A DNA stretch of 32,000 bases from Nitrosospira multiformis ATCC 25196 (lineage in GTDB: Bacteria > Pseudomonadota > Gammaproteobacteria > Burkholderiales > Nitrosomonadaceae): positions 390,001 to 422,000 of the forward strand of contig NC_007614.1 in NCBI RefSeq assembly GCF_000196355.1, given 5' to 3'. The notes under the pieces are model-generated. The model was not told the origin of the DNA and searched no databases. It was given only the letters and a program-made list of their open reading frames with translations. Position 1 is the first letter of the stretch, and every line of letters begins with the position of its first letter. The translations under genes were made by a program, and so were the position numbers. Below are positions 5,056-23,612 of the stretch, one piece after another.

Positions 5056-6507
5056 ATGTCTTGTGAAATTCTTATCAATGTTACCCCCCAGGAAACGCGT
5101 GTCGCGGTGGTCGAGCATGGCGCCGTCCAGGAACTGCACATAGAGCGCACCAGCAATTGCGGCATAGTGGGCAATATATATAACGGGCGCGTAATCCGGG
5201 TGCTGCCGGGGATGCAATCCGCTTTCGTGGATATCGGTCTCGAACGGGCTGCTTTTCTCCACCTCGCTGATATCTGGCGCTTGCGGCAGAGTGAAGACGC
5301 TGATAAACCGATTGAACAGCTGTTATACGAAGGAAAAAATATCCTCGTCCAGGTTATCAAGGATTCAATCGGTGCCAAGGGTGCCCGCCTGTCGACTCAG
5401 GTCAGTATTGCGGGCCGTTTGCTGGTTTATCTGCCCCAAGTATCGCATATCGGCATTTCCCAGCGCATCGAAGATGAAACCGAACGGAAGTCGTTGCGTG
5501 AAAAACTGAAACATTTGTTGCCAGCCGCGGAAGAGGGAGGATTCATTATCCGTACCGTGGCGGAAGCGGCAAGTGAACAGGATCTGCAAACGGATATCGA
5601 GTACTTGCACAAGCTATGGCGCGATATCAAGGAAAAATCCCTGATTTCCCAGCCGGCCTTACTGTATCAGGACCTGAATCTGAGTTTCCGCGTCTTGCGC
5701 GACTTCATCAGTGATGATACGACTCGCATTCTGGTGGATTCGCGGGAAACTTTCCAGAAGATGGCGACCTTTGCACGAGTGTATATGGCCAACGTAGTGG
5801 AGCGCCTCGATCATTATGCGGGGGAGCGCCCTTTGTTCGAGTTGTATGGGGTGGAAGATGAAATCGAGAAAGCCCTGGCGAGGCGTGTCGACCTGAAGTC
5901 CGGGGGTTATTTGATCATTGATCAGACCGAGGCGCTTACCACCATCGATGTAAATACTGGGGGATTCATCGGCGTACGCAGTTTTGACGATACCATTTTC
6001 AAAACGAATCTCGAAGCGGCCCAGGTCATTGCGCGCCAACTCCGTCTTCGAAATCTGGGAGGCATTATCATTATCGACTTCATAGATATGGAGAGCGCGG
6101 AACACCAGAATGCCGTTCTCAGCGAATTCAAGAAGTCGTTGATGAAAGACCGGACTCACATGACGGTGAACGGTTTCACCGCCCTCGGACTCGTGGAAAT
6201 GACGCGCAAGCGGACGCGGGAGAGTCTGGCGCACATTTTGTGTGAAACCTGCCCGACTTGCCAAGGCCGCAGCAAAGTCCGGACGGCCCAGACCATGTGC
6301 TATGAAATCCTAAGGGAACTGCTGCGGGAATCCCGTCAGTTCGATGCGCGTGAATTCCGCATTGTGGCTTCACAGCAGGTAATCGATCTGTTTCTCGACG
6401 AAGAATCCCAAAGCCTGGCGCAACTTGCCGATTTTATCGCCAAACCCATCAGTCTTCAGGTGGAGGGGACGTATACCCAGGAACAATATGACCTGATTCT
6501 CATGTAG
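5056..6507 (+). CDS. rng: Ribonuclease G (RNase E/G family, short form)
   Basis: At 483 aa it has the size of RNase G and is far shorter than RNase E. It has an S1-like N-terminus (ILINVTPQETRVAVVE...GNIYNGRV.RVLPGMQSAFVDIG), the catalytic-core motifs TEALTTIDVNTG and IIIIDFIDM, and the zinc-link motif CxxCxG (CETCPTCQG). Confidence 0.9.
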   Translation: MSCEILINVTPQETRVAVVEHGAVQELHIERTSNCGIVGNIYNGRVIRVLPGMQSAFVDIGLERAAFLHLADIWRLRQSEDADKPIEQLLYEGKNILVQVIKDSIGAKGARLSTQVSIAGRLLVYLPQVSHIGISQRIEDETERKSLREKLKHLLPAAEEGGFIIRTVAEAASEQDLQTDIEYLHKLWRDIKEKSLISQPALLYQDLNLSFRVLRDFISDDTTRILVDSRETFQKMATFARVYMANVVERLDHYAGERPLFELYGVEDEIEKALARRVDLKSGGYLIIDQTEALTTIDVNTGGFIGVRSFDDTIFKTNLEAAQVIARQLRLRNLGGIIIIDFIDMESAEHQNAVLSEFKKSLMKDRTHMTVNGFTALGLVEMTRKRTRESLAHILCETCPTCQGRSKVRTAQTMCYEILRELLRESRQFDAREFRIVASQQVIDLFLDEESQSLAQLADFIAKPISLQVEGTYTQEQYDLILM

Positions 6508-7321
6508 CAGGTTTCACGGCAATAATCCCCTGGGGTCCGCTCCCTGAATATTCATTTTCTATCCCGGGCAGGCCGTTTCCTGTTTCCGGAAGGTTCCTTT
6601 TTATATCCTCTGTGATAACGTCATAGAGCGGCCGCAGGTTGGGTCTCATACCTTTTATCGTTCCACTGACACTCATCATTGAGGGAACGCGTATACCATG
6701 ATGCTCGACGGGGGGACCGATGAACTTAAGGTCGAACCCGAGTTTGGCGAAATGCAGTGCAAGGCGCTCTTCAGTCAGAATGAACAAAGTCTCGATTTTA
6801 TGCAGGCGCGCCAGTTCGAAGGTACCTAAATAAAGGCTGATTGGAATGTAAGGAAAGCGCCGAGATTGTGCTACTCCGAAATCTTCATCCGCGATGTCGA
6901 TCGCTTTGCTCGCCTCGCCTTTACGTCTTCGGTAACTGGCAACGACAGCCAGACGTGATACCTCTGCGATATGATGGCGGGGTAACAGCGCGGGATCGAT
7001 AATCGACCGGTCCAATGTATCAGCGCAGGTTATCTCAAAGGGTAAAGGATAATCAGGATCCTTCGGCCGGGGAGAGATTATGCGCGCGCAGCCAATGAAC
7101 TCTTGTGTCTGGACATTGCGTAACAAAAAGTGTAGCGAGTCAATATCATACTCATCGCTTTCTCGCCTATCCCGCTGAAGGGGCTCAAATTTGAGATCCT
7201 CGCAATAAACCTCATGCCGGATCCGGTGAACCTCATCTTTTAATTCGTCCGAAAACGCGGGTACGATTTCAAAGTACCTCTTGAATGCATGACCCAGATC
7301 AAGTATTTCGGTTAGAGACAT
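6500..7321 (-). CDS. N-acyl amino acid synthase-like GNAT of the PEP-CTERM/exosortase-system-associated acyltransferase type (distantly related to FeeM and LuxI)
   Basis: The N-terminus ...FKRYFEIVPAFSDELKDEVHRIRHEVYCEDLKFEP and the central ...HIAEVSRLAVVASYRRR match my recollection of the TIGR03694-type family. The gene lies in a block with prsT and a PEP-CTERM gene. Its 3' end overlaps the rng 3' end by 8 nt in convergent orientation. Confidence 0.78.
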   Translation of the reverse strand: MSLTEILDLGHAFKRYFEIVPAFSDELKDEVHRIRHEVYCEDLKFEPLQRDRRESDEYDIDSLHFLLRNVQTQEFIGCARIISPRPKDPDYPLPFEITCADTLDRSIIDPALLPRHHIAEVSRLAVVASYRRRKGEASKAIDIADEDFGVAQSRRFPYIPISLYLGTFELARLHKIETLFILTEERLALHFAKLGFDLKFIGPPVEHHGIRVPSMMSVSGTIKGMRPNLRPLYDVITEDIKRNLPETGNGLPGIENEYSGSGPQGIIAVKPAT

Positions 7322-7450
7322 GTTTCAGCCAACGGCAGTTTTCTCTGATACTTTAGGACGAAGCGAAAATATTCCGGGTTGAGACTTTCTTGCAGGAAGT
7401 TACCCCTGTTAACACGGAAGCGAACAGGTACCATTTACGTAAAACGAATT

Positions 7451-7483: not shown

Positions 7484-7501
7484 ATGAGTCTCGTGATAGC
7501 C

Positions 7502-8263
7502 CTAGTCGAGTTTCTTTAAATAATCTTTGGTGAAAACCTTATCCGGAAGATCGCGCTGTTTCATTCCCGAGTATTCGAGTACCGATTGTTCACCTGTGCG
7601 CAAGGCATCTTCCATGACAAGACGGGTTGGACGCAACGCTCCATGGAGCATCTGGAATTTCTCGTACCGGGCGGTTTTGAGTAGACGGTCGGACAGTGAG
7701 TAGAATTCCGCTCGATAAGGCCAGAAATTTGATTGCCCAACCCAATACAAAACCTTATGATAAGTCACTCCACGGTCGACCCCTGTGAGTTCCAGCACGT
7801 AATACTTTTCGCCCTCGATAACGTCTGTGCGCAAAATTTTAGCGTTGTAATCCCCGGCAAAATTTGCGCGAGCCAAGTCCCCATTTGCTACTTGGCCGGT
7901 AAGCCGCTGGGACAGGGATAGACGTACGGGCTGGGAGACTTCCGGCATGAATATCCACAGATCTCGCCCTTTCAGCAATAAAATCTGACCTCGTTCCGAA
8001 GCTGGCTCCGTGGTCATCACTACGCTATTTTCGTTACCCTTGGATAAGACCCTGTACTTGCGCCAATCTTCCGGTTGACCCGGAGCGGTTGTGTTAATGG
8101 TGACGTCGACCTGAAAACTCTCTCGCGGGAATCGTATCTGATCAGCCTTTTCCAGAATTGTTTGAGCCAGCTCAGTATCATTTGTGTCTGCTATTGCGGT
8201 TGGCACCGCAATAGCAAATAGGAGAATCACCGTTAATAAGTATTGCTCAGAATTTTTTTGCAT
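7502..8263 (-). CDS. Periplasmic LolA-like protein (annotated in this family as 'outer membrane lipoprotein-sorting protein')
   Basis: Sec signal peptide (LLTVILLFAIAVPTAIA/DT) with no lipobox Cys. The body (...IRFPRESFQVDVTINT...YRVLSKG.ENSVVMTTEP..ERGQILLLKGRDLWIFMP....PVRLSLSQRL.GQV.NGD...) resembles the LolA_like family, which usually sits beside FtsX/ABC or RND exporters. Confidence 0.7.
   Translation of the reverse strand: MQKNSEQYLLTVILLFAIAVPTAIADTNDTELAQTILEKADQIRFPRESFQVDVTINTTAPGQPEDWRKYRVLSKGNENSVVMTTEPASERGQILLLKGRDLWIFMPEVSQPVRLSLSQRLTGQVANGDLARANFAGDYNAKILRTDVIEGEKYYVLELTGVDRGVTYHKVLYWVGQSNFWPYRAEFYSLSDRLLKTARYEKFQMLHGALRPTRLVMEDALRTGEQSVLEYSGMKQRDLPDKVFTKDYLKKLD
8190..8216 (+). 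promoter_or_regulatory. Perfect 10-bp-stem inverted repeat (GCTATTGCGG / CCGCAATAGC) whose loop and 3' arm read TGGCAC-CGCAA-TAGCA. This is a sigma-54-like -24/-12 element with one mismatch, about 105 nt upstream of the ABC ATPase ATG.
   Basis: Read directly. The GG-N10-GC spacing is correct. The -12 box is TAGCA where the consensus is TTGCA. The element lies inside the signal-peptide codons (AIAVPTAIA) of the divergent LolA-like gene. Confidence 0.3.
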
Positions 8264-8320
8264 GTTCAGTTCCTATCATGAATGCCAACTACTACAGGGA
8301 TTACCGGTCGGGGGATTTTT

Positions 8321-9055
8321 ATGAGTGACACGGGCATTGTGCACCTCGAGAATGTTTCCAAAGATTACATCCTTGGTGAGCAGAAAGTCCAGGCATTGAA
8401 AGACATTACGTTAGATATCGCCTCCGGCGCTTTCCTCGCTATTGCAGGTCCATCCGGCAGTGGCAAGTCAACGCTGCTCAATCTGATTGGTTGTATTGAT
8501 ACGCCCACCGCCGGCAAAGTTTTAATCAACGGTCAGGATATCAGCGGCCGTACTCCGGATGACCTGTCCGGGCTCAGGGCAAGAACTATCGGGTTTGTTT
8601 TTCAGACGTTCAATCTGTTTCCCGTTCTCTCTGCTGAGGAGAACGTCGAGTATCCGTTGCTGCAATTCAGGGAATTGAAGACAGCAGAGCGCCGCATCCG
8701 GGTTGCTGAATATCTCGATATCGTCGGTTTGTCCAGGTTTGCCCGGCATCGGCCGAACCAGCTCAGCGGAGGGCAACGTCAGCGTGTAGCGATTGCACGG
8801 GCACTGGCAACGCATCCGAAAATAGTATTGGCTGACGAGCCTACTGCCAATCTTGATCATGCGACAGGTGAAGGCATCCTGGAGCTGATGAAGAATATCA
8901 ACGACAAATTTGAGACAACCTTTATTTTTTCCACTCATGATTCGCGTGTCATGGCGATCGCGGACAATGTAATCCATATCCAAGATGGTCAGATCGTGCA
9001 ACGGGAAATTCGCAAGGAGAAATCCATGCACGTTATTGAACATAGGGATAGATAG
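8321..9055 (+). CDS. ABC transporter ATP-binding protein, LolD/MacB-type
   Basis: Walker A GPSGSGKST, signature LSGGQRQRVAIARAL, Walker B IVLADEPTANLD and H-loop STHD. I prefer the ATG at 8321 (MSDTGIVHLENVSKDY, preceded by GGGGGA) over the track start at 8282. Confidence 0.9.
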   Translation: MSDTGIVHLENVSKDYILGEQKVQALKDITLDIASGAFLAIAGPSGSGKSTLLNLIGCIDTPTAGKVLINGQDISGRTPDDLSGLRARTIGFVFQTFNLFPVLSAEENVEYPLLQFRELKTAERRIRVAEYLDIVGLSRFARHRPNQLSGGQRQRVAIARALATHPKIVLADEPTANLDHATGEGILELMKNINDKFETTFIFSTHDSRVMAIADNVIHIQDGQIVQREIRKEKSMHVIEHRDR

Positions 9056-9082
9056 ATGTGAAAAAGGTGACTTCCAAAGGTA

Positions 9083-10795
9083 ATGACGAAAGTAGCGCCG
9101 ATGAGTTACGGAATTAGGGGCGTATATCTGATAAGCCTAAAGGCACTGCTTGTTGTAAGGTCGATCAGCTTTGCAGGGGAGGCGCAGGTTCAGCTTCCGG
9201 ATGCTGCAAAACCGGTACCTGTTATCTACGACGCGAATGAGGACCGTACAACACCTGCCGAGCCTTTGATGCTCACTTTGTCTTTAGCGATGGGAACGTC
9301 CCCCGCTCGTCCGGTACGGGAGCCGGATGATAGAGCGGGCGCTGTGGTTTCGCAGGGGGAGAATGTGGAGAGAAGGCTGGGTGAGGAGAAGCCTTTGCTA
9401 TTGTCCGTATCACCTTCTCTTTCTTTTATTTCGGCTCCTGCAGCAAAAGATCATGAGATAAATCTGAGCAGAGAACCTGCCCCTGTCATTGCTGCCGGGA
9501 ACGATGCGGAGAGCGAGTTCACGTCGCGGGAAGCATTATTTGGCGACGATTTGGGTCAAGAGCAAAAGCCATCAAAACCTATGCCTGCCTGGAAGAGGTT
9601 GGTGACTGGGTGGAGGGGTTTTTCCCAGCTGGAAATCGCGGACACTTATACTGACCCCGAGCATTTATCGAAAGCAAAGCTTCGAACGGAGCTATCGCGC
9701 ACGGGACAGTTCAACGAAAACATAAAATGGAAAATAAGCGGTCGCTTCGACTATGACGCAGCTTATGACCTGTCCAGTTTTTATCCACACGCGGTCCGTC
9801 AGGATCAACGCTACCAGTTTTTCGTCCGAGAAAATTATCTTGATGTCTCGGCTGGCGATTTTGATTTCCGTCTCGGTCGTCAGCATGTGATATGGGGCGA
9901 GATGGTGGGACTGTTCTTTGCGGACGTGGTATCCGCGAAGGACTTGCGGGAATTTGTCCTGCCTGCCTTTGACATATTGCGCATTCCCCAATGGGCGGCG
10001 CGCGCGGAATATTCGAAGGGGGATTCCCATGCTGAAGTGGTGTGGATTCCTGTGCCGACTCTTGACGAAATTGGAAAGCCGGGAGCGGATTTCTATCCCG
10101 GTCCCTTGCGCGGAGTAGCTACCTATCTTCCAGAAGATCGCTCCGGGCGGAATATCGCGAACTCCAACTATGGGGTGCGTTTATCGCACCTTGTAAATGG
10201 CTGGGATATTTCGGGTTTCTACTACCACAGCCTGGATTCGTCGCCTACGTTCTATCGCATCGGTGGCCCGCTTGACCCTCCTGTCTTCCAGCCCCGTCAT
10301 GATGAGATTGACCAGGTGGGTGGAACCCTTTCGAAAGACTTCGGCTCAATCGTTTTAAAAGGCGAACTGATTTATACAGATGGACGCAAATTCAACGTCA
10401 CGCGACCCACCGCAATGAATGGGTTGGTCAGGCAGAATACGCTCGACTATGTTATAGGCCTGGATTTCAGTTTGCCTGCCGAAACCCGCTTGAATCTGCA
10501 GTTCTTTCAGCGTGTCTTTTTTACGCATGACCCGGATCTCCCTCTGGACCGGCTTGAGAATGGCGCCAGCATTCTGCTCAATGGCAAGCTCTCCCCCAAG
10601 ATTGAGGCTCAAGCTTTACTGATCCACAGTCTGAATCGTAGCGACTGGATGTTCCGGCCTCGATTATCCTGGAATTTCCAACCGAACTGGCGTTGGGCGG
10701 TTGGAGCAGACGTATTTGGCGGTCCACCTATTGGTCTGTTTGGCCGTTTCGATCATGCCGACCGCGTCTATACCGAATTGCGGTATTCATTCTGA
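9083..10795 (+). CDS. Putative outer-membrane beta-barrel protein, DUF1302-like, with a ~170-aa low-complexity N-terminal region
   Basis: The motif FRLGRQHVIWGEMVGLFFADVV resembles the DUF1302 hallmark (lRlGrQvvsWGE). The C-terminal half alternates aromatic and polar residues, and the protein ends ...YTELRYSF with the terminal Phe typical of BAM substrates. The start and signal peptide are uncertain. Confidence 0.6.
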   Translation: MTKVAPMSYGIRGVYLISLKALLVVRSISFAGEAQVQLPDAAKPVPVIYDANEDRTTPAEPLMLTLSLAMGTSPARPVREPDDRAGAVVSQGENVERRLGEEKPLLLSVSPSLSFISAPAAKDHEINLSREPAPVIAAGNDAESEFTSREALFGDDLGQEQKPSKPMPAWKRLVTGWRGFSQLEIADTYTDPEHLSKAKLRTELSRTGQFNENIKWKISGRFDYDAAYDLSSFYPHAVRQDQRYQFFVRENYLDVSAGDFDFRLGRQHVIWGEMVGLFFADVVSAKDLREFVLPAFDILRIPQWAARAEYSKGDSHAEVVWIPVPTLDEIGKPGADFYPGPLRGVATYLPEDRSGRNIANSNYGVRLSHLVNGWDISGFYYHSLDSSPTFYRIGGPLDPPVFQPRHDEIDQVGGTLSKDFGSIVLKGELIYTDGRKFNVTRPTAMNGLVRQNTLDYVIGLDFSLPAETRLNLQFFQRVFFTHDPDLPLDRLENGASILLNGKLSPKIEAQALLIHSLNRSDWMFRPRLSWNFQPNWRWAVGADVFGGPPIGLFGRFDHADRVYTELRYSF

Positions 10796-10826
10796 TTGAT
10801 TTCAGAAGCAAGTACTTTATATACCT

Positions 10827-12038
10827 TTATATATTCTGTCGTAGCGCATCAACAACGGGGGTGCGCGAGATATGCCTCCCGGGAACGATAGCCGCCGATA
10901 CTGTTGCTGCTATACCGATGGCAAAGGATGCCAGCAAAACGCCGGGGACAATCTGGATGTGGGCTGTATAGCCAAGGTTGGAATTTGGAGGCGGCGGCAT
11001 CGAGATACCGATCGCAGAGATAATAAGCGCGAGGCCAATTCCGAGTCCGAGCCCGAGGCCGCTGCCGATCACTCCCAGTAGGAAGTTTTCCGTGATGATC
11101 AATTGGAATACTTCGTTTCTGCGGTTGCCCAGGGCCATCATTGTGCCGAATTCTCCTGTTCTTTCAAAAGCACTCATGTTGACACTGTTCAGGACCCCGA
11201 GCAGAACCATGATAAGGATAATCAGTTGCAGAAAACCTAGCTGGCGTCCATAAAGTTCTACCGTTTTTTCGTAGAAATCGTTGAGTTCGATCCACGTTTT
11301 GATCTCCAGCCCCAAAGTCTCTAACTGTTCTTTTAGCAGCCCTGCAATACGAAATGTATCGTCCGTTTTTTTCAGTGAGATGACCAGTGCATTAACGCCT
11401 TGCGTGCCCAGCAACTCCTGGGACGCGGCGAGCGGAATTCTTATTGCTCTAGCATCATAATCACTGGAGAAACTCTTGAATACGCCGACGACCTCCAGAT
11501 CAATGGTGTTTAATGCTCCTTCCAGTGTATTTGCCAGCAGGGTTACGTGATCGCCGGGTTTCAGCTTCAATTCCTGGGCGACGCCCACCCCGATAGCGAT
11601 ACCGAACTTATCCGTGTTTTGCAGTTGACGCCCCGAGATGATCGAGACGGAGCTTCCAAGCGCCGCTTCTTTCGCTGGTTCTACACCCTCTCCAATGATG
11701 GGAAGGTCAGCCCGGCCGTTATTGAGCAGGGCCGAGAAATTGAGTCGCGCCATTACGCTATCGATACCCTCGTTATTCATGATACGCCGTTTAATGGCCT
11801 CGTCATCCGTTATCAGATATCTCTCCGGGGCGTGCGCTCCGGCAGCAAAAAAACCTTCCTTGTAGACTTGCAGATGACCGGATCGAGAGTGGATAAGAGC
11901 CTCCGATAAAGTAACGAAAATATCGTTCACCCAGCCGCCAGCAAGAACAAGAGCTACCACGCCGCTCACGATCGCCGCCAGAGTCATTGCGGTGTGTGAT
12001 TTCTGTCGAAAAATATTTCGAAAGGCCAGTCTGAGCAT
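10827..12038 (-). CDS. ABC transporter permease, FtsX/MacB-LolC/E family (paralog 2)
   Basis: N-terminal LAFRNIFRQKSHT followed by TM1, a large periplasmic domain, and a C-terminal FtsX domain (...NMSAFERTGEFGTMMALGNRRNEVFQLIITENFLLGVIGSGLG...). At 403 aa its size is comparable to LolC/LolE. Confidence 0.85.
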   Translation of the reverse strand: MLRLAFRNIFRQKSHTAMTLAAIVSGVVALVLAGGWVNDIFVTLSEALIHSRSGHLQVYKEGFFAAGAHAPERYLITDDEAIKRRIMNNEGIDSVMARLNFSALLNNGRADLPIIGEGVEPAKEAALGSSVSIISGRQLQNTDKFGIAIGVGVAQELKLKPGDHVTLLANTLEGALNTIDLEVVGVFKSFSSDYDARAIRIPLAASQELLGTQGVNALVISLKKTDDTFRIAGLLKEQLETLGLEIKTWIELNDFYEKTVELYGRQLGFLQLIILIMVLLGVLNSVNMSAFERTGEFGTMMALGNRRNEVFQLIITENFLLGVIGSGLGLGLGIGLALIISAIGISMPPPPNSNLGYTAHIQIVPGVLLASFAIGIAATVSAAIVPGRHISRTPVVDALRQNI

Positions 12039-12054
12039 TATTCACTTTTCCGAA

Positions 12055-15810: not shown

Positions 15811-15839
15811 AATGAAAAGGCCACCCCGACAGGGTGGCC
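15811..15839 (-). terminator. Rho-independent terminator of the PEP-CTERM protein gene
   Basis: A perfect 8-bp GC-rich stem (GGCCACCC, 15819-15826, paired with GGGTGGCC, 15832-15839) with a 5-nt loop. On the - strand it is followed by TTTTCATT. It begins about 30 nt past the stop at 15870. Confidence 0.7.
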
Positions 15840-15869
15840 CGAAGAGTGAATGCGATAACCGCTGTTTAC

Positions 15870-16709
15870 TCAGGTGCGACGACGGCCCGTGAAGGCAAAA
15901 CCAAGCAGACCGATACCCATCAGAGCTAAAATGCCGGGCTCCGGCACTTCTCCGTGAGTAAAACCTTGTGATCCATCGGTTTGGATTACAAAACTCGATG
16001 CAGTGTCAGCCCCGGTGGCAACTCCGTCAAATGCTGCCGGCCGCGTATAGGATGGCGCACTCTGGCCGGGGAACTGAAGCGAGGCTTGAAACTGAGTGCC
16101 TGCCAACGCCGGATTCACATACGTGTTATTAGTGAAGGTGACCGTTCCGAACAGAAAACCGCCGCCCGTGCCGAGTACGGCCGGCCCGGGAATCGCACCG
16201 GTTGCAGAGAAGGTGCTGAAACCGCTATCCCATGTTCCACTCAGTATGTTCACCCCGTCGAGAAAGCCCGTCCCGGTGGACTGGTTCGCATCAGGACTGG
16301 AATCAAGGAAAATCCGCCATGATCCGCTGTTCGTGGTGATATCGATGCTGGAGCACCCATCGTTCGCGCAAGTCGCGGTCTGTGTAAGCGTCTGAAAGGT
16401 GGTTACTTCGTACGTTCCATTTTGGGAGCCAGGAGCCGCCACAAATAGATTATTCGTCGGGGAAGTGGTGTTGATGACACCTGCAAAGGCTTGATACGTC
16501 AAGGTGAAGGTATCGCTATCACCTTGCATGTTGGCACCGGTCAGGTCAAACCCCTGAACCCAGCCGCCACCATTTGAATGCCAGTCGAAGCCTGTAAAAT
16601 TTTGCAGTACTCCATCTGCGCTGAATGTGTCCAGGGTTGCGGAATATCCAATGGCGGGACCACCCAGCAATACTGCAGCCATTGATAAATTGATGAGCTT
16701 TTTATTCAC
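15870..16709 (-). CDS. PEP-CTERM-anchored secreted protein (Thr/Gly/Ser/Asn-rich; possibly related to flocculation-type PepA proteins)
   Basis: N-terminal signal peptide (MNKKLINLSMAAVLLGGPAIGYSA). The C-terminus has the VPEP motif, a hydrophobic helix and a basic tail (VPEPGILALMGIGLLGFAFTGRRRT), which is the textbook PEP-CTERM sorting signal. The GTG start is preceded by GGGGAGAG. Confidence 0.9.
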   Translation of the reverse strand: MNKKLINLSMAAVLLGGPAIGYSATLDTFSADGVLQNFTGFDWHSNGGGWVQGFDLTGANMQGDSDTFTLTYQAFAGVINTTSPTNNLFVAAPGSQNGTYEVTTFQTLTQTATCANDGCSSIDITTNSGSWRIFLDSSPDANQSTGTGFLDGVNILSGTWDSGFSTFSATGAIPGPAVLGTGGGFLFGTVTFTNNTYVNPALAGTQFQASLQFPGQSAPSYTRPAAFDGVATGADTASSFVIQTDGSQGFTHGEVPEPGILALMGIGLLGFAFTGRRRT

Positions 16710-16766
16710 GATTCTCTCCCCATAGCAATAACGATAAAAGAAGCTGTTTGTTTCAGGTTATACCCA

Positions 16767-16782
16767 AGCAATCCCTATGCCA
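16767..16782 (-). promoter_or_regulatory. Sigma-54 (-24/-12) promoter TGGCAT-AGGGA-TTGCT driving the PEP-CTERM gene
   Basis: On the - strand it reads TGGCATAGGGATTGCT, against the consensus TGGCAC-N5-TTGCW. The GG-N10-GC spacing is exact. The predicted TSS near 16756 gives a ~47-nt leader. An AT-rich tract lies upstream. Confidence 0.75.
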
Positions 16783-17377
16783 TCTTTTATATTATTTTAT
16801 TTAAGTTTTAATATCAGTTACTTATCAATCCTCGACTCTCTTGCATCCAGATTGAAGTCTCAAGGTGTAAGAAATATCGACAGCGCTCCTGCTTTTGTGC
16901 TTCTTCCAAAGCATTTTCGATACCTTTGTGAGGGCTTTTTCAGGAGTCGTGGTTGCTGGATATCCTGGTGCCAATCCCGTTGTGGGGCGATATAGAGTAT
17001 AGCCAATTACAGGGAGGGAATCATGGGACGAGTATTACGAGTATCATATGGCTGTTGCCCGTGAGGTCATAACATTTCCCGGCTTCCCGGATTAGAAGGG
17101 CAAGATTCCAAGAAAACTCAAGCAATGCCATCCGACCGGTCTTTCTCCGCCTGAAACACTTGCGGAGCAGGCCATTCGCGCCAGAAACAGCCAGCATTCC
17201 TTGCTGTAATCGAGATAAGACGGACCACTCTCGGGCTCGGGGATTCAAAATCCCCGGGGACTGCATCCTGAATCGACAGTCAGCAAATAGCCACCAGATT
17301 CCTCATTGTTCCAGACTTCGGAAGGAGACAAGTATTCCCCCAGACTTGCCAATGAATGAAGCGGGCGAACGGGCATA

Positions 17378-19432
17378 TTAAGCTCCTGCCCTCAGGCGCC
17401 AAAGCATCTGCTCCAGCTCGAGCCGGATAGACCGCGAAGCGGGTCTTTTGCCAGCCCCGATGCGCCCCATGAAAACGGCTCTGGTCGCGACTTCTTCTCC
17501 CAGAATATGACCAAGCCGTCGGGTCAGTGAGGTGGCGAGTGTAATGCATTGTTTTGTCTTCGAAAAGGGAATACTTTCACGACTATAACGTGCAAAAACC
17601 AGAGGAGTTATTTCCGGCTGCAGCTGCAGGCCAAGTTTAGTTGCTGTAAGCCAGAAGCGCTGCATAACGCGTCCTGCGCTCACGTAGTCATCGATGGATC
17701 GAGGCGCGTGAGGCGCCAGGATAACGAAATGCCCGCCACAGGCCATGGCGGGGATCAAATCCATCTGGAGACGCGGTGCCCAGGTTCCCGCCAAAAAAGT
17801 GTTAAAAAATTCGACACGATCCCAGCTTCCCATGATCCAATGCATTAACCGGGCTGTAAATGGATCAACTCCGAGTGCCTGGTCAGGTACTTTATCTGCG
17901 CTATAGCGGGAGTTCCATTGTATGATGGCGCGGTGCACCTGATAGGCTTCAGGCATAATCAGACGCAATTTTGCATTGTCGAACAGGAACCGGGCCATTT
18001 CCAGACGCCTGGAAAAACCCTCCAGCCACAAGATGTCGTACTGGGGTTTCACTGCAGCCTCTAGCGCACTCTTTTCTCTCCCGGTTAAAGGCCGCGTACT
18101 CATGGGGCGGCGTTGAACGCTGCGATAGCGTATATAAGGAATAAGCGGATCGGGCTTAAGATGCGGGTCACTCCCGAAATGGATATCGAAGGTTGGCTTC
18201 GTATCGGAACAATCGGGACGCCGCTGGATACTTGTTTTTAGGCCATGGCCCGTAGCGGCAATAGATATGGTTTCCAGCAATGCGCCGATTGAAATTTGAC
18301 TAGGACGTCCATCCAGGTCATAGACGCAGTGATCACGGGTGTCGAAACCGTGTATTGTCAGGGAATTGTCCCCGACGATCTGGAACCGCCAAGGCTGGGT
18401 ATTGTCTCCGCTCGGCGCCCACCTGGCAAGATCGAGGATTTGCTCGATTAATGTATATGACTTGAGCTCGGGTGGCCTTTTACTTTCGTCCTCACAGCCT
18501 GTCGATTCAGAGGGAATGATAGTACCCGTGGAAGAATAGGGCTCCGGATCTCCGAAGAGCTTGTTAGTATTTTTTTTGCTCAGGCGACGCCTTGCAATTG
18601 CGAGACTGAACTGCTGGAGAGGATTGCTGTTCCCGCCCGGACGCCAGGTACGGATCAGTTTATTGCGGTAGGCGTCGAAATGAACTCCATGTGGAGCGGC
18701 CAAAACCGTACCGCGATTCAGCAGGATCTTCAGAGCTTCAGTAGCTGCAATACCCGCGCAGAGTTGGCAACCCATTATCGTTGAGGGACCGCGGCGTTCC
18801 TTGAGATTGATGCTGGAGGGATCCAGCAGGTAACGGGCATGGAGACCAGTGGGCGCGAGTCCTATCAAGAAACGGAGGGCCTTTTCCACCTCGGGTAGAT
18901 CACCCCACTGAAAATACTCTTCGAAGGTCATTTTGCCAGGCAGGAAATTCAATAATGCCGATCCCATGCCTAAAGGAGCGGCCGTGATGGCGGGAATACC
19001 TCGCTCCTCACAGGCCGAAAACGTTACTGCGCGAGCTGAAAAGGCGAAAAAGTCGAGACCATCGATATACAGATCAACGTCCTCGAAAAATTCCGGCAAA
19101 TTATCCGGATTGACGCCCCGAGGAAAGATTTTGATATTCAGTTCCGGATTGATATCTCGTGCCATTGCGGCTAAAACCTCGCTCTTTGGCCGATTGAGGC
19201 TCGAGACCGTGGCGCCTACCTGGCGGTTGAAATTGACCAGATCAAAAACATCAAAATCCGCAATATGAAATGCGCCAATCCCCAGCCGAGCCAAGGTCAG
19301 CAGATGAATACCCCCTACGCCGCCCAGACCGGCAATTGCAATGCGTTTGTACCGTAGAATTTCCTGTTCGACAGGTGTTACCCACCCAATATTGCGGGAG
19401 GTGGCCTCACGATATGAGAAATCCTGAACCAT
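17378..19432 (-). CDS. Fusion protein: N-terminal ThiF/MoeB/HesA-type E1-like adenylyltransferase domain and C-terminal nitroreductase-fold (Acg/MoeY-like tandem) domain
   Basis: N-terminal Rossmann motif IAIAGLGGVGG, the FNRQ arginine-finger region and a DGLD motif. The C-terminal half begins LDLARWAPSGDNTQPWRF, the hallmark of Acg-type nitroreductase-like proteins. The overall ThiF+nitroreductase layout recalls mycobacterial MoeY (Rv1355c), from memory. Confidence 0.85.
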   Translation of the reverse strand: MVQDFSYREATSRNIGWVTPVEQEILRYKRIAIAGLGGVGGIHLLTLARLGIGAFHIADFDVFDLVNFNRQVGATVSSLNRPKSEVLAAMARDINPELNIKIFPRGVNPDNLPEFFEDVDLYIDGLDFFAFSARAVTFSACEERGIPAITAAPLGMGSALLNFLPGKMTFEEYFQWGDLPEVEKALRFLIGLAPTGLHARYLLDPSSINLKERRGPSTIMGCQLCAGIAATEALKILLNRGTVLAAPHGVHFDAYRNKLIRTWRPGGNSNPLQQFSLAIARRRLSKKNTNKLFGDPEPYSSTGTIIPSESTGCEDESKRPPELKSYTLIEQILDLARWAPSGDNTQPWRFQIVGDNSLTIHGFDTRDHCVYDLDGRPSQISIGALLETISIAATGHGLKTSIQRRPDCSDTKPTFDIHFGSDPHLKPDPLIPYIRYRSVQRRPMSTRPLTGREKSALEAAVKPQYDILWLEGFSRRLEMARFLFDNAKLRLIMPEAYQVHRAIIQWNSRYSADKVPDQALGVDPFTARLMHWIMGSWDRVEFFNTFLAGTWAPRLQMDLIPAMACGGHFVILAPHAPRSIDDYVSAGRVMQRFWLTATKLGLQLQPEITPLVFARYSRESIPFSKTKQCITLATSLTRRLGHILGEEVATRAVFMGRIGAGKRPASRSIRLELEQMLWRLRAGA

Positions 19433-19594: not shown

Positions 19595-20413
19595 TCACGC
19601 AGAGGGTACCCAGACACCCCCGGTTTTCAGTCGCTCAGTAATGTTACCTTCATCCTCTGCGGAAAAAAAATAGGGGTAAAAAGATCTTTCGTTACCGTGT
19701 TGCTCCATCAATCCGCCGAATTTCCCAATTTGTTCGGCCATATATTCAAGTTTCACCCTAAGCAGCACCGCAGGTGCGTCAACACGGGTGCAAACTCGCT
19801 CTTCGGCAATCTGCCTGCATCCCAGCATTCTTTTATAGAAACCAGCGTGACGAGGGTTTACTTCTACCACCCAGTCAGTAAAACCATGGATATTTGCCGC
19901 ATAGATATAGCAAACATGAATCAGTGAAGCAAAAACCCGGGGAGGTACATTATCATCAATTGCAAGTCTGGAAGGTTCACACAGCCTTCGTCCCTGCGCC
20001 CGCAACTCATTCAGTTCGTCACCAAAATTCTCATCCGCGGGCAACGATGAATTGCCATCCACACACAAGGTCATGGTGCCTACTGTCTGGTTTGCGGTTT
20101 CAGCGATCAATGTAATCCTGTTAGGCTCGTTGATGACCGGCATATCAACAGAATAACCTCTCCAGGAATACCTTTTTTTTATGAGCAAGCTCGCGGCTTC
20201 ACGCTGATCTTCTGAATTAGCCATTCGAATATGAAAGCGCTGTTGATCGATAGAATGAGTGCGAACAGACTTGGAATCATGTTTCCCAATACAAATATCC
20301 TGCCACCGATAAGGAGACTCGAATGAAATTATCGCTTCGCTATCTTCACTATCATGAGGCAGAAAGTTATATCTGTGGGTAATGAGAGCATAAAATGGTT
20401 GAAAGATATGCAT
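19595..20413 (-). CDS. FeeM-like long-chain N-acyl amino acid synthase (GNAT fold), second and divergent copy in the island
   Basis: ...IRMANSEDQREAASLLIKKRYSWRGYS...TLIAE..NQTVGTMTLCVD....LPADENF..EL..LR..GRRLCEPSRLAID...VEVNPRHAGFYKRMLG resembles FeeM/NasY-type enzymes. The start is moved to the ATG at 20413 (MHIFQ..., SD GAGGA 8 nt upstream) because the track start (TTG at 20455) lies inside the sigma-54 promoter. Confidence 0.72.
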   Translation of the reverse strand: MHIFQPFYALITHRYNFLPHDSEDSEAIISFESPYRWQDICIGKHDSKSVRTHSIDQQRFHIRMANSEDQREAASLLIKKRYSWRGYSVDMPVINEPNRITLIAETANQTVGTMTLCVDGNSSLPADENFGDELNELRAQGRRLCEPSRLAIDDNVPPRVFASLIHVCYIYAANIHGFTDWVVEVNPRHAGFYKRMLGCRQIAEERVCTRVDAPAVLLRVKLEYMAEQIGKFGGLMEQHGNERSFYPYFFSAEDEGNITERLKTGGVWVPSA

Positions 20414-20454: not shown

Positions 20455-20470
20455 AGCAATATCCATGCCA
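20455..20470 (-). promoter_or_regulatory. Sigma-54 (-24/-12) promoter TGGCAT-GGATA-TTGCT driving the FeeM-like / ThiF-nitroreductase operon
   Basis: On the - strand it reads TGGCATGGATATTGCT. Its half-sites are identical to those of the promoter at 16767-16782. The predicted TSS near 20444 gives a ~31-nt leader to the ATG at 20413. Confidence 0.75.
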
Positions 20471-20523
20471 TCTTTATATCGTGAGCTTTATCAGCTATCT
20501 AGCTATGTGTGTTACCGCACAGA

Positions 20524-20556
20524 CTGGATAACTGTCTCCTGTTGGAGACAGTCCAG
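20524..20556. promoter_or_regulatory. Strong inverted repeat CTGG-ATA-ACTGTCTCC-TGTT-GGAGACAGT-CCAG. It is a candidate enhancer (bEBP) site for the sigma-54 promoter and/or an RNA hairpin downstream of prsT.
   Basis: Read directly: a 9-bp perfect core plus a 4-bp outer stem. Its centre is about 97 nt upstream of the predicted TSS at ~20444 and about 115 nt downstream of the prsT stop. No U-tract follows it on either strand. Confidence 0.45.
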
Positions 20557-20656
20557 ATGCGATATCAAGTAGCTCACTGAAATTAAAAGGATTATTGATG
20601 TCGCCGGGATGAGACAGGGGTTGGTCGATAAGCGACTGATTTTGCGTGTTTTCACA

Positions 20657-23446
20657 CTACTGTATCCGCTCAAGAAGAGCTCTGGCTTCATCTATGCCTG
20701 AAAAGGTTTTTCCAGTAGCCAGAATTTGCTCAAGCTCTTTACGCGCCTGGCTTTTATTGCCAGATTTAACCAGTGCGGATGCAAAATGGTAGCGGATTTC
20801 CCCTGCTTGAGGCGCCAAAGAAGCGGCTTTCTGTAAAAGCGGTAGAGCTCGCGCGATATTTTCCTGCTCCAGCAGTACCCAACCCAGCGTATCCAGTACT
20901 GCCGGGTTTTCCGTAGCAAGCTGGTATGCCTTTTCCGCGTATTCCAAGGCCCTGGGGTCCTTTTGACGCTGATAAGCGGTAGCCAGGTTATTAAGCGCCG
21001 GAGCAAATTTCGGTTGTTCTTTCAGGACAGTTTGATATTGCTCCACTGCAGCAGCCAGTTTTCCCTCTGTGAGAAACGTATCCGCGAGGTACATTCGAGC
21101 AGATAAATCATTCGGGTGTTTTTTCAGCCATTCGATCAAGCGAAGGTCTGCCTCCTTATCTTTTCCAGCCTGCCTGAGCGATGCGTGCAGCTTGATCAAC
21201 AAGGGCGAGGTTTTATTAACCGCGAATGCCTGTTCATAGGCGCTTGCGGCAAGCGCGGGTTTTTTCTGTTTCAGCAACAGATCGCCCTCTGCTATATAAC
21301 CTGCGGGTGACCCTTTATGCTGCTTCTGAACTTGGCGCGCCATCGCGATTGCTTTCTCATAATTACCCTGTTCTGCTTCAATGTCGATCTGCGCCAATTG
21401 CGCAGCCAGATAATCGGGTTTTATAGCCAGCGATTTTTTCAGCGCATCTGATGCGGCGGAGAGGTTCCGCATTGCCATATGAATGGAGGCGATGCGGAAT
21501 TGAACAAGCGGGGATTCCGGTTGTACGACAGCGAGCCGGGCGTAGCTCTCCAAGGCACTCGATTTGTCATTGTTAGCTAGTTGAGCCTGTGCCAGTAAAT
21601 CCAGCACAGCGGAGTCCTTGGAATGTGTCCCCTCCAGTTTCTTGGCGAGAGCCAGGGCCTTCTGCTTTTCGCCCAAACGCAGATAATGTGTTCCAAGCAG
21701 GATGGCCGGCTGAAGGACATCCGGATTTGCTTGCATTGCACGCTCCAGCCACTCGGTAGCCTTCTGGTTCTGTCCCTGGTTGACAGCAAGACCCGCCAGC
21801 GCGACCATGGCCTGGATATTCTTCTTGTCCTTTTCCAGAATTGCTTCAAAGCGTTTTCTTGCGGCATCCGGTTTTTTATCCTGAATGTCGAGTCGTGCGA
21901 GATTTGCTATAGTCGGAAAATAGTTTGGTTGAATAGCAAGCGCTTTCTCAAAGCTCGCTCTTGCATTCGCTATATCGTTCTTGCCAAGATACACGCCGCC
22001 TTTCAGGTTTTGAATGAGGGGATTATCAGGATTCTCCTTCTCCAATGCCTTTACCGCGGCGAGCGCCTTGTCGAATTCTTTGAGGCGTAAATGGGTCATG
22101 ACCAGCAACACTCCTGCCCGCGGCGATTTGGGGTCGAGTTTTGTCGCTGTTTCCAGTTCGGAGATGGCCCGGGCGTTTTCCCCCTGCCCCAACCTGCTCA
22201 TGCTTAAAGCGGTATGAAGCATCGCACTTCTCGGTGCGATATCGCTGGCCATTTCAAAGTATTCCGTGGCTTTCGCAAAATCCTTGGCTTGCATGTAAGC
22301 TTCCCCAGCCAAGGCGAATAACTGGGGATCCTCTTTCACATTTTTGAGCGGTGGGGTCAGGATGTCGATCGCGCGTTTCGTCTCGCCATTTTTTAACAGC
22401 GCGGAAGCAAGCAGCTTGCGCGCGTAGATGTTTCCGGGATCTTTCTCCAGATAATGTTTCAGGTGTTGTTCCGCCTGGGGCATGGATCCGAGAGCAAACT
22501 GGACTGCGCCCGCGAGCAACACGCTGGGCATGTGATCTGGCGACTTGCTGAGTACCTGCTGGAGCGATTCCAGCGCGGCAGCGGGCTTTTGCTGGCTGAA
22601 ATCGAGCAAAGCCTGGGTATAAAACACCATCAAGCTGGGACTGATCTTCCGTGCCGCGTCGATATCTGCCTTTGCCGCCTCGAACTTGCCCGTTCCAATT
22701 TCGATGAATGCTTTGTTGATATAGGCAATGGCTGCGTTCGGTTTCAGCTTTACCACCTGGTCATACGCCGCCAGAGCTTCCCCGGATTTGCCTTGCATCC
22801 GCAGAAGGTCGCCCCTGAACAACCAGGCCTCGACATTTTGTGGGCTCCGGGAAACCGCCTGCTCCGAGAAATGGGTTGCGCCTTCCACATCCCTTTGAAC
22901 CAGGGAATATTTCGCCAAGCCGATCAGTGCGTCGGCAGAATCGGGATTGTGTCCGAGCGCTTGCTCGAACAGTGCCTTTGCTTCCGCGGTCTTGCCCAAT
23001 CCGAGCTGTGCATTCCCCCGGAGCGTAAGTATCTGCGCCGACTTTGTTTTGTCGGCCAGTTCTTTCGTTTCATCCAGGATTTGTTGATAGGCGCCTAGCC
23101 TGAGCAGGGCTTGTCCGAGTTCAGGCAGCACCTTGCCCGCATCCATTCCCAAGCTCAACGCCTTGCGAAGCTCCTTCTCCGCGGACTGAAAATCCCCAGT
23201 CTTGTTGTATATTGCGCCAAGCAGATATCGCGCTTCCGAATTATCCGGGTTCTGCTGCAAGGCATTTTTTAGCTGGATGATGGCTGACTTGTGATCCCCG
23301 CTTTCTTCGTAGCGCTTCGCATCCGCCATCAGTTTCACCGGATCCACCGCTTTGTTACAGCCTTGCATGCTGCTCACGGTGAGGGCGGCAGCGATTGCAA
23401 GCGTCAGCCCAGTCTTTTTTAAAACAGTCTTTCTAAAAGCGCGCAT
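20657..23446 (-). CDS. prsT: PEP-CTERM system TPR-repeat lipoprotein PrsT
   Basis: About 929 aa of tandem TPR repeats behind a lipoprotein signal (LTLAIAAALTVSSMQGC). The size and architecture match the PrsT family (TIGR02917 as I recall). I prefer the ATG at 23446 (MRAFRKTVLKK, SD GGAGAAGGGA) over the track start at 23488. Confidence 0.85.
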   Translation of the reverse strand: MRAFRKTVLKKTGLTLAIAAALTVSSMQGCNKAVDPVKLMADAKRYEESGDHKSAIIQLKNALQQNPDNSEARYLLGAIYNKTGDFQSAEKELRKALSLGMDAGKVLPELGQALLRLGAYQQILDETKELADKTKSAQILTLRGNAQLGLGKTAEAKALFEQALGHNPDSADALIGLAKYSLVQRDVEGATHFSEQAVSRSPQNVEAWLFRGDLLRMQGKSGEALAAYDQVVKLKPNAAIAYINKAFIEIGTGKFEAAKADIDAARKISPSLMVFYTQALLDFSQQKPAAALESLQQVLSKSPDHMPSVLLAGAVQFALGSMPQAEQHLKHYLEKDPGNIYARKLLASALLKNGETKRAIDILTPPLKNVKEDPQLFALAGEAYMQAKDFAKATEYFEMASDIAPRSAMLHTALSMSRLGQGENARAISELETATKLDPKSPRAGVLLVMTHLRLKEFDKALAAVKALEKENPDNPLIQNLKGGVYLGKNDIANARASFEKALAIQPNYFPTIANLARLDIQDKKPDAARKRFEAILEKDKKNIQAMVALAGLAVNQGQNQKATEWLERAMQANPDVLQPAILLGTHYLRLGEKQKALALAKKLEGTHSKDSAVLDLLAQAQLANNDKSSALESYARLAVVQPESPLVQFRIASIHMAMRNLSAASDALKKSLAIKPDYLAAQLAQIDIEAEQGNYEKAIAMARQVQKQHKGSPAGYIAEGDLLLKQKKPALAASAYEQAFAVNKTSPLLIKLHASLRQAGKDKEADLRLIEWLKKHPNDLSARMYLADTFLTEGKLAAAVEQYQTVLKEQPKFAPALNNLATAYQRQKDPRALEYAEKAYQLATENPAVLDTLGWVLLEQENIARALPLLQKAASLAPQAGEIRYHFASALVKSGNKSQARKELEQILATGKTFSGIDEARALLERIQ

Positions 23447-23612
23447 GTAAATTCCCTTCTCCGAATCAGCGACCAGGTCCACCTTCAAACTTATGCATTC
23501 CTGCAGCCGGCACTCAACTTTACACCTCTGCGCAATCCCCGTGAAACGGGGACCATCCGGTTTTCAGGAGGACAATCGATACCGAGGCTTTCCATTGGTT
23601 TTGCCACTACTA

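Follow-up and report, generated by a model that had tools for sequence, protein, structure and literature searches.

The block of genes examined here occupies positions 6500–23488 of a 32,000 nt stretch of Nitrosospira multiformis ATCC 25196 (contig NC_007614.1, positions 390,001–422,000; hereafter the window, to whose numbering all coordinates refer unless a related locus is named). It comprises two genes for N-acyl amino acid synthases (NAS), a gene for a ThiF–nitroreductase fusion related to the oxazolone synthetase OxzB, genes for a GT1-family glycosyltransferase, an E2-fold protein and a putative exporter, and two genes of the XrtA/PEP-CTERM (exosortase) system, pepA and prsT. An earlier note on this DNA had assigned the proteins to families, and profile and hidden Markov model searches of each protein bear out all of these assignments at the positions given below. 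Scores are reported as bits against the curated or gathering cutoff of the respective Pfam or NCBIfam model. The locus is conserved in Nitrosospira: the entire block is syntenic in N. multiformis Nl7 (locus L005), and synteny also extends to N. multiformis Nl18 and to related metagenome-assembled genomes (MAGs).

The fusion gene (17378–19432, minus strand) encodes a protein of 684 aa, in which a ThiF domain (PF00899, 135 bits, residues 13–265) and a nitroreductase domain (PF00881, 46 bits; PF00881/Acg-family match at residues 328–606) are joined in one polypeptide scoring 437 bits against PRK08223 (cutoff 266). A protein of N. multiformis shares 94% identity with it. Over residues 4–677, the protein is 49–50% identical to the proteins of two Rheinheimera pacifica loci (L066 and L071), which match the same NCBIfam profile; the strains of these loci may differ from the strain used by de Rond et al., who reported OxzB in 2020/21 as the first oxazolone synthetase (bioRxiv 10.1101/2020.06.11.147165). 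According to that report, OxzA N-acylates tyrosine or phenylalanine and OxzB, with ATP, produces 4-arylidene-2-alkyl-oxazol-5-ones (tyrazolones, phenazolones); the reaction was established in vitro for Pseudoalteromonas rubra and by heterologous expression for four further species, R. pacifica included. In our alignment of 14 homologues (A1), the glycines G35, G37, G38, G40 and G41 as well as R70, K83, D124 and D127 are invariant, i.e., the adenylation site is intact. The mapping of these residues onto R70, K83 and D127 of ThiF follows the phmmer register together with the ThiF literature, and is presumed to be correct. The closest structures are Acg (2ymv), AclA (9egb) and TcdA. What had been taken for a generic tailoring enzyme is, judged by sequence identity over its full length, an OxzB homologue with a putative ThiF cyclodehydratase and a putative FMN (flavin mononucleotide)-dependent desaturase domain, and it most likely converts an N-acyl amino acid to an N-acyl oxazolone.

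Related loci were collected by using the fusion protein as anchor; a scan of one genome per species gave 567 relatives, of which the best 80 loci were used, and four loci were added by exact-protein look-up. Neighbour counts refer to those 50 loci that extend for 8 kb or more to either side. In 24 loci (e.g., L076, 10004–10882, and L012, 9995–10870), which belong to Janthinobacterium, Dechloromonas, Propionivibrio, Thiobacillus and others, ThiF (approx. 292 aa, PRK08223-like) is encoded by one gene and the nitroreductase domain by a separate, adjacent one. In the window, 668 bp separate the oxzB-type gene from pepA (16710–17377), and the promoter-distal half of this region carries an open reading frame of 81 aa (17021–17266), for which family searches gave no match. 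Relatives carry a hexapeptide acyltransferase gene at this place; a remnant of it was considered and rejected, as tblastn of 16710–17377 returned nothing.

Directly upstream of the oxzB-type gene, on the same strand and at a distance of 162 bp, a FeeM-type NAS gene takes the position of oxzA (19595–20413, minus strand; PF21926, 181.8 bits, gathering cutoff 27). The second NAS gene (6500–7321, minus strand) lies 10 kb from the oxzB-type gene and adjoins the exporter genes. Its product is a member of TIGR03694 (261.4 bits, cutoff 111.95), a family entitled PEP-CTERM/exosortase system-associated acyltransferase. Since R. pacifica, too, has a TIGR03694 member (242 bits) at the oxzA position, the OxzA family is the TIGR03694 family. 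The two NAS-like GNATs of the window had been described as unrelated-looking, and this is confirmed by BLASTP, which detected no similarity between them (E = 0.74). Both the FeeM-type protein and the fusion protein match PRK14852, an NCBIfam model of 989 positions, at positions 75–233 and 314–779, respectively. This model is the sole evidence for a triple FeeM–ThiF–nitroreductase fusion; no such fusion was present among the best 150 matches to the FeeM-type protein in a representative search, all of which measure 124–335 aa. In Sedimenticola hydrogenitrophicus (L073, 8444–9682), the NAS encoded upstream of oxzB is of the FeeM type and includes a fused cyclic-nucleotide-binding domain, which hints at a possible direct control of the synthase by a second messenger. 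That NAS matters for the matrix is indicated by Methylomonas LW13, in which disruption of the exosortase-associated NAS abolishes a polysaccharide band and complementation restores it (PMC11072679).

The link to the exosortase system is carried by pepA (15870–16709, minus strand), encoding a flocculation-associated PEP-CTERM protein (NF033554, 166 bits, cutoff 80) that has both a signal peptide and a tail of the form VPEP...RRRT, and by prsT (20657–23488, minus strand), encoding the TPR protein of the XrtA/PEP-CTERM system (TIGR02917, 952.3 bits, cutoff 312.2). With both scores above cutoff, the block contains one PEP-CTERM surface protein together with PrsT, as had been stated. The exosortase itself, prsK and prsR had been noted as absent from the window, and none of them was found among the window proteins; within these 32 kb, the XrtA/PEP-CTERM system is incomplete. 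The exosortase gene presumably lies in another part of the genome, because N. multiformis is among the genomes in which Haft et al. analyzed the DNA upstream of PEP-CTERM genes for motifs (PMC1569441).

Both pepA and the feeM–oxzB unit are preceded by a sigma-54 promoter of the −24/−12 type, located at 16767–16782 (TGGCATAGGGATTGCT) and 20455–20470 (TGGCATGGATATTGCT), respectively, both on the minus strand. The two sites have AAAGATGGCAT...ATTGCTTG in common, are intergenic and are oriented correctly. A loose sigma-54 consensus was found six times across the window with 4.5 occurrences expected, and this count alone is not significant. Rather, we judge both sites to be real because of their context in related loci, where a sigma-54 motif is found at most 250 nt upstream in 40 of 51 PepA-type genes (approximately 3 expected at a background of 0.185 per kb per strand). 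The site upstream of feeM is kept in only four of 23 loci (L005, L006, L007, L018), which represent the Nitrosospira lineage and one Sulfuricella MAG.

Upstream of the pepA promoter, at a spacing of 83 nt from the −24 element, lies the single occurrence in the window of motif 1 of Haft et al., the predicted PrsR site (16866–16881, minus strand; GTCGATATTTCTTACA). pepA thereby has the architecture described upstream of proteobacterial PEP-CTERM genes, i.e., a TTTACA-containing motif 1 assigned to PrsR, a spacer of 32–92 nt and a −24/−12 motif (PMC1569441). Sites of this class are present in 25 of 39 PepA-type promoters, 77–114 nt upstream of the −24 element, the background being 0.024 per kb. 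In Aquincola, RpoN dependence of the pepA promoter has been demonstrated by experiment (PMC9850573). The gene is followed by a strong intrinsic terminator (15819–15840, minus strand) consisting of a hairpin with a 10-bp stem, including 7 GC pairs, and a T-run. An enhancer common to both sigma-54 promoters was rejected, since motif 1 is located upstream of pepA only. Upstream of the feeM promoter, we found the dyad TGTGCGGTAACACACA (TGT-N10-ACA; 20506–20521, minus strand), a candidate activator site which recurs as TGTGCG-N4-CRCAC in L005, L006 and L007, and a perfect inverted repeat with 9-bp arms (ACTGTCTCC AACA GGAGACAGT; 20531–20552, minus strand). Because neither of them corresponds to PrsR motif 1, a different activator may drive feeM–oxzB. 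Consequently, the claim that two units carry the same sigma-54 promoter is correct for the core promoter and incorrect for the activator sites.

Two further genes are candidates for modification of a product. The first encodes a GT1-family glycosyltransferase of the UDPGT/EryCIII-like type (13631–14857, plus strand), which scores above cutoff for PF06722 (52.5 bits) and PF00201 (45.9 bits) and falls below the cutoffs of specific NCBIfam subfamilies (e.g., MGT, 68.7 vs. 260). The C-terminal nucleotide-sugar-binding domain of the UDPGT/EryCIII/MGT type is present. The second encodes a stand-alone protein with E2/CAT fold (14913–15725, plus strand; PF00198 2-oxoacid_dh, 78 bits) of 270 aa, which consists of the catalytic fold alone and differs from 2-oxoacid dehydrogenase E2 components in the motif and in lacking the lipoyl and subunit-binding domains. 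At the position of the canonical E2 motif DHRxxDG it reads FDRRLMGG, which confirms the altered active site noticed earlier. The family comprises approximately 253 stand-alone proteins; FDRR is present in all 119 motif-aligning members among 120 listed, and the members share an insert of approximately 40 aa in which R, W, P, P and W are invariant and which ends in an invariant HRGG. As FDRR is kept in every one of the 119 aligning homologs, the change of the motif is not due to decay, and from its sequences the family looks like a functional, uncharacterized subfamily rather than a decayed E2. The designation as an E2/CAT-fold acyltransferase is thus right in respect of the fold, whereas acyltransferase activity is doubtful because the catalytic His is missing. 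A membrane hexapeptide acyltransferase takes the place of the E2-like protein in 15 loci, including that of N. multiformis Nl18. In the latter (L006, 12017–15394), a GMC oxidoreductase, an SDR and the membrane hexapeptide acyltransferase are encoded between oxzB and pepA, and an E2-like gene is absent; tailoring genes are exchanged between strains of one species in this case.

The stretch from 7502 to 13284 had been described as an export route from the inner membrane across the periplasm to the outer membrane, and genes for each of these parts are indeed present. They encode a LolA-like periplasmic carrier (7502–8263, minus strand; LolA_like PF17131, 167 bits) with a signal peptide and no lipobox, an ABC ATPase of the LolD/MacB/DevA type (8282–9055, plus strand; PF00005, 123 bits; LolD TIGR02211, 216 vs. 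308), a DUF1302 protein, which is a putative outer-membrane beta-barrel (9083–10795, plus strand; PF06980, 50 bits vs. 23), and two FtsX/MacB_PCD permeases matching PF02687 and PF12704. Permease a (10827–12038, minus strand) is LolC/E-like with four transmembrane-like segments and scores 83 bits against lolCE TIGR02212 (cutoff 362); permease b (12055–13284, minus strand) reaches 95 bits against the same model. Since no Lol equivalog model reaches its cutoff, the exporter may work like Lol but is not Lol. The true start of the ABC ATPase is probably at approx. 8321; the spacer between the divergent LolA-like and ATPase genes (8264–8320) measures 18 bp as called and would be approx. 57 bp with the family-aligned Met as the start. 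The DUF1302 protein AmeA is a predicted outer-membrane part of an efflux system for hydrophobic compounds, and a pair of a DUF1302 and a LolA-superfamily protein belongs to a monoterpene efflux system of Castellaniella (PMC6394551).

The OxzB-anchored loci show which of these genes belong together. A PEP-CTERM gene (270–350 aa) is present in 39 of the 50 loci and lies within 500 bp in 19 of them; a GNAT is found in 38 (within 500 bp in 28), a PrsT homolog in 26 and a GT1 gene in 22 (within 500 bp in 11). The acyltransferase occurs in 15 loci, every one of which also has GT1, whereas at least three exporter parts are encoded in 11. Classical XrtA-type exopolysaccharide (EPS) genes accompany 20 of the loci. 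The second anchor, the E2-like gene, is always adjoined by GT1 in the contexts of three distant family members. In Zoogloea (L085), the order is GT1, E2-like, PEP-CTERM, FtsX and FtsX; in Ferribacterium (L086), it is LolA-like, ABC, DUF1302, GT1, E2-like and PEP-CTERM; and in a Burkholderiales MAG, LolA-like, ABC, DUF1302, FtsX, FtsX, ThiF–nitroreductase, GT1, E2-like and, after further genes, PrsT. With the third anchor, the LolA-like gene, 36 metagenome-contig loci of at least 9 kb were obtained, and 30 of them contain another part of the system. The trio of DUF1302, ABC and LolA-like genes is essentially constant here, with DUF1302 accompanying the other two in 32 of the 36 loci and with LolA-like orthologs of 58–96% identity. 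A GNAT gene, mostly TIGR03694-like, starts at most 1.5 kb from the LolA-like gene in 18 of the 36.

Based on these counts, the core consists of a NAS, ThiF/nitroreductase and a PepA- or EDSAP-1-type PEP-CTERM gene. Frequent accessories are PrsT and GT1 with the acyltransferase; the exporter formed by LolA-like, ABC, DUF1302 and two FtsX proteins is less frequent. As three independent anchors recover the same partners to a varying extent, the system is modular and graded. The same gene set is distributed across Nitrosospira, Methyloversatilis, Sulfuricella, Dechloromonas, Propionivibrio, Zoogloea, Ferribacterium, Ca. Tenderia and many gammaproteobacteria. The genes in the window could, in principle, be unrelated neighbors which happen to lie between rng and a phosphatase gene in Nitrosospira. 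They do form several transcription units of differing orientation, and the PrsR motif is found at pepA only. Nevertheless, the synteny recurs from three independent anchors across many genera of beta- and gammaproteobacteria, which excludes a chance neighborhood for practical purposes; we regard it as highly improbable. The gene-neighborhood check therefore supports the earlier view of the genes as a cooperating set.

The PEP-CTERM neighbors of the OxzB loci are not a random sample of the large PEP-CTERM family. Those of Herbaspirillum, Thiobacillus, Pseudocolwellia, Methyloversatilis, Zoogloea and Rheinheimera score above the PepA cutoff, and those of Janthinobacterium and Ectothiorhodospira above the EDSAP-1 cutoff. 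The mature PepA/EDSAP-1 proteins are of acidic composition, with abundant S, T, N, G, Q and A and extremely few basic residues, and PepA of the window is devoid of Lys after the signal peptide. In an alignment of 46 PEP-CTERM neighbors (A2), Lys accounts for 0.76% and Arg for 0.96% of the mature proteins. Depletion of Lys as a result of selection against stray acylation was considered as well; since Arg is equally low, the composition merely reflects a general scarcity of basic residues, and the idea was dropped.

Some loci replace parts of the set. In Ca. Tenderia electrophaga (L001, 7822–20599), two TIGR03694 NAS, oxzB, an MMPL transporter, GT1, a hexapeptide acyltransferase, PEP-CTERM and PrsT follow each other in this order and adjoin EPS genes of the Wza and chain-length type; MMPL replaces the ABC set, the rest being kept. 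Other loci carry additional genes for a GMC oxidoreductase, an SDR or a methyltransferase. Non-homologous replacements and variable extras of this kind typically mark small-molecule pathways in which the tailoring varies.

Taking the evidence together, we consider it reasonably probable that the block makes, modifies and exports a lipid of the N-acyl-oxazolone type, that it is expressed along with the floc protein PepA, and that it represents a satellite of the XrtA/PEP-CTERM system of Nitrosospira. We infer that a single oxazolone-derived lipid is made, glycosylated and exported by these genes. In the first step, a NAS, i.e., the FeeM-type enzyme (19595–20413) and possibly also the TIGR03694/OxzA-type enzyme (6500–7321), would acylate an amino acid, most likely an aromatic one by analogy with characterized systems. 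Close homology suggests that the ThiF domain of the OxzB homolog would then adenylate the free carboxylate and close the oxazolone ring, and that the FMN-binding nitroreductase-fold domain would subsequently desaturate the bond between C-alpha and C-beta. For the remaining steps, the conserved neighborhood is our guide. GT1 may add a sugar, and the E2-fold protein, being devoid of the catalytic His, may bind, scaffold or transfer in a non-canonical manner. The MacB/LolCDE-type ABC machine, comprising two FtsX permeases and the ATPase, would extract the product from the inner membrane, and the LolA-like carrier followed by the DUF1302 barrel would move it outward. Regarding regulation, pepA with its own terminator would be controlled by PrsR motif 1 and sigma-54, and feeM–oxzB by the same core sigma-54 promoter with a different upstream dyad. 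The earlier note had proposed that the genes cooperate and that the lipid derives from an acyl amino acid; both points are well supported, and the product may also reach the cell surface, as the note had suggested. The role given there to the ThiF–nitroreductase protein and the novelty of the core were not upheld.

Several observations weigh against this interpretation. Addition of flanking genes to oxzAB left the product profile in E. coli unchanged (bioRxiv 10.1101/2020.06.11.147165). At their frequencies among the 50 OxzB loci (11 and 22, respectively), the exporter and GT1 are accessories, not obligatory parts. The E2-like protein has no catalytic His, and motif 1 is absent upstream of feeM. 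The AlphaFold2 model of the OxzB homolog, built from a 14-sequence alignment, is weak (pLDDT 63.8, pTM 0.49) and served for domain-level Foldseek matches only. Synteny scoring relied on BLASTP and, for PEP-CTERM tails, on a regular expression, and the loci are not phylogenetically independent. Finally, L085 and L086 carry the module around PepA without NAS or OxzB within 10 kb.

The last point leads to the strongest rival, according to which the block has two functions: OxzAB would make a small oxazolone or N-acyl-dehydro-amino-acid, while PepA would be the substrate on which GT1, an acyltransferase (E2-like or hexapeptide) and the LolA-like/ABC/DUF1302 proteins act. PepA would be glycosylated or acylated and, in its exosortase-processed form, would travel as Lol-like cargo to the outer membrane. 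Because L085 and L086 combine GT1, the E2-like protein and PepA with an FtsX pair and with LolA-like/ABC/DUF1302, respectively, in the stated absence of NAS and OxzB, a module serving PepA fits these loci equally well. Likewise, GT1, acyltransferase and PepA genes are tightly adjacent in many loci, and PepA of Aquincola shows three processed bands (PMC9850573). On the other hand, in at least 16 loci a TIGR03694 NAS is encoded directly beside the LolA-like gene, transporters of a lipid type replace the ABC set (MMPL in Tenderia, RND in Stieleria), and the variants with GMC oxidoreductase, SDR and methyltransferase look like small-molecule tailoring. Further, GT1 enzymes of the UDPGT/MGT type typically act on small, lipophilic acceptors, and, unlike PepA, which is a Sec substrate, the GT1 protein of the window carries no signal peptide. 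Overall, we regard this division into two functions as unlikely.

In another scenario, the product would be a diffusible signal, surfactant or antibiotic released to the medium, merely co-regulated with the floc/EPS program and without a physical role at the surface. Export machinery is part of the block, and there are precedents for release: stieleriacines are present in culture supernatants and alter biofilm composition (PMC7293339), and for oxazolones, with a hydrolysis half-life of hours, a role as stress signal was suggested (bioRxiv 10.1101/2020.06.11.147165). However, co-regulation alone hardly explains the adjacency of PepA/EDSAP-1 genes in 39 of the 50 loci, let alone the 19 cases within 500 bp, and a LolA-like carrier combined with an outer-membrane barrel suggests a very hydrophobic cargo delivered to the outer membrane. 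Release to the medium therefore appears decidedly unlikely to us.

A more speculative extension of the oxazolone pathway, which we regard as quite doubtful, is that oxazolones serve as pre-activated acyl donors which are carried by the LolA-like route and lipidate or cross-link PepA or exopolysaccharide without ATP. The oxazolone would be made in the cytoplasm, perhaps glycosylated, and shielded from water on the LolA-like route to the outer membrane, where an amine or hydroxyl group on either PepA or exopolysaccharide could react with it; the E2-fold protein with its invariant His-to-Arg change could be the ring-opening transferase. The idea arises because the adjacency of NAS, OxzB and PepA is conserved, oxazolones are electrophilic with their half-life of hours, and the processing of PepA is unexplained. 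If it were true, the oxazolone would provide the partner chemistry still missing from the exosortase system.

Housekeeping genes form the left flank (aceE′, aceF, nadD, rsfS, rlmH, maf, rng), including a genuine E2, AceF, at 1125–2516. The right flank consists of an inositol-monophosphatase-family gene, redoxin, rsmE, argA, ppk1 and a CYTH–CHAD gene. The position of the block between housekeeping runs was given correctly for rng on the left; its right neighbor (23951–24733, minus strand) had been named suhB. This gene encodes an inositol-monophosphatase-family protein with CysQ and HisN as nearest models, which stays below every equivalog cutoff, that of SuhB included, and the name is therefore unjustified. 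ppk1 and the following two-domain CYTH–CHAD gene (30199–31758; together 28022–31758) are both polyphosphate-related and unconnected with the present finding. The GC content of the block is 0.511, compared to 0.545 and 0.542 in the flanks, and searches for tRNA genes and Rfam families across the window found none. With a GC dip this slight, no tRNA gene or Rfam match in the window and a locus conserved across Nitrosospira, the interpretation as a mobile island was dropped.

The data join two threads, namely the role of bacterial oxazolone lipids, termed a major unresolved question (PMC12856293), and the question, open since 2011, why NAS genes track exosortase. They suggest that an oxzAB-type pathway has been built into the PrsT/PepA part of the exosortase system, together with GT1, an unusual E2-fold protein and an exporter of its own. 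The association offers a testable answer to both questions and opens experiments in genetically tractable floc formers such as Zoogloea, Aquincola and Methyloversatilis; it is relevant to the aggregation of nitrifiers and activated-sludge bacteria. In addition, it draws attention to an uncharacterized E2-fold family with an invariant His-to-Arg change and to an exporter subfamily of the LolA-like/DUF1302/MacB type that likely carries a lipid.

Regarding precedence, the earlier note had suggested that the combination has not been described as a system. For the core this does not hold, given OxzB (2020/21), the NAS–exosortase link of 2011 and the Stieleria cluster (PMC7293339). PEP-CTERM and exosortase are not mentioned in the oxazolone preprint (bioRxiv 10.1101/2020.06.11.147165), the 2025 stieleriacine paper or the ThiF review; full-text searches for exosortase with ThiF and nitroreductase and for PEP-CTERM with DUF1302 returned nothing; and no paper joining the oxazolone and exosortase threads was found in the literature examined, which covered de Rond et al. 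as the preprint and Craig et al. (2011) as cited by others.

Compared with LolCDE–LolA, MacB and AmeABCD, the last of which combines DUF1302, LolA-superfamily and RND components (PMC6394551), the exporter shares the two FtsX/MacB_PCD permeases, the ATPase, the LolA-fold periplasmic protein and a predicted outer-membrane DUF1302 protein. It differs from LolCDE–LolA in scoring far below the Lol equivalog cutoffs, in the lack of LolB and in a carrier belonging to PF17131 rather than to the LolA family. The pepA–prsT floc locus of Aquincola tertiaricarbonis and Zoogloea (PMC9850573) resembles the window in that pepA forms a single-gene unit with sigma-54 promoter and terminator; in the window, in contrast, feeM and oxzB are inserted between prsT and pepA, and that paper is silent on NAS, OxzB, GT1 and the exporter. 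The link of NAS with exosortase is credited to Craig, Cherry and Brady (2011, J Bacteriol 193:5707) in PMC4897644 and PMC11072679, and the window conforms to it with a TIGR03694 protein above cutoff in a block with PepA and PrsT.

The stieleriacine cluster of Stieleria maiorica, with NAS genes, a ThiF/TcdA-like enzyme, a nitroreductase-type oxidoreductase, a PEP-CTERM gene and RND pumps (PMC7293339; PMC12479983), shares with the window the combination of NAS, ThiF-like protein, nitroreductase, PEP-CTERM and exporters; the Stieleria cluster adjoins EPS genes. It is, however, planctomycetal, encodes ThiF and nitroreductase separately, has RND pumps as well as a methyltransferase and a desaturase and no GT1, and its reported products are ring-opened dehydrotyrosines (N-acyl dehydrotyrosine). 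The mycobacterial equivalents for tyrosine and tryptophan are TyzACB and the fused TrzS (Rv1355c) of Mycobacterium tuberculosis (PMC10404671; PMC12856293), with cyclization preceding the FMN- and O2-dependent desaturation in TrzS (PMC12856293). They follow the same logic of NAS, ThiF cyclase and flavin-dependent desaturase. TrzS is fused like the window protein, and Acg (2YMV) is the closest structure for both (PMC12856293 for TrzS). In contrast, the window protein reaches only 175 bits against NF005901, the Rv1355c family (cutoff 476), and groups with proteobacterial OxzB relatives; TrzAS comes from actinobacteria and lacks an exosortase context.

The nearest relative is OxzAB itself, with which the window shares the two-domain ThiF–nitroreductase protein, a NAS directly upstream on the same strand and, elsewhere in the block, a TIGR03694 NAS. 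The R. pacifica locus L066 (9211–20415) contains oxzA and oxzB followed directly by pepA (95 vs. 80 bits, with a sigma-54 promoter) and prsT (508 vs. 312) and, further on, a UDP-ManNAc dehydrogenase gene and the genes for the exosortase-A-associated acyl-CoA ligase TIGR03098 and the pyridoxal phosphate-dependent decarboxylase TIGR03099. The window differs from OxzAB in the gene at the oxzA position, which is FeeM-type (PF21926) in place of the TIGR03694 member of R. pacifica, in the sigma-54 promoter of the operon, and in the attached GT1, E2-like protein, ABC/LolA-like/DUF1302 exporter, PepA and PrsT.

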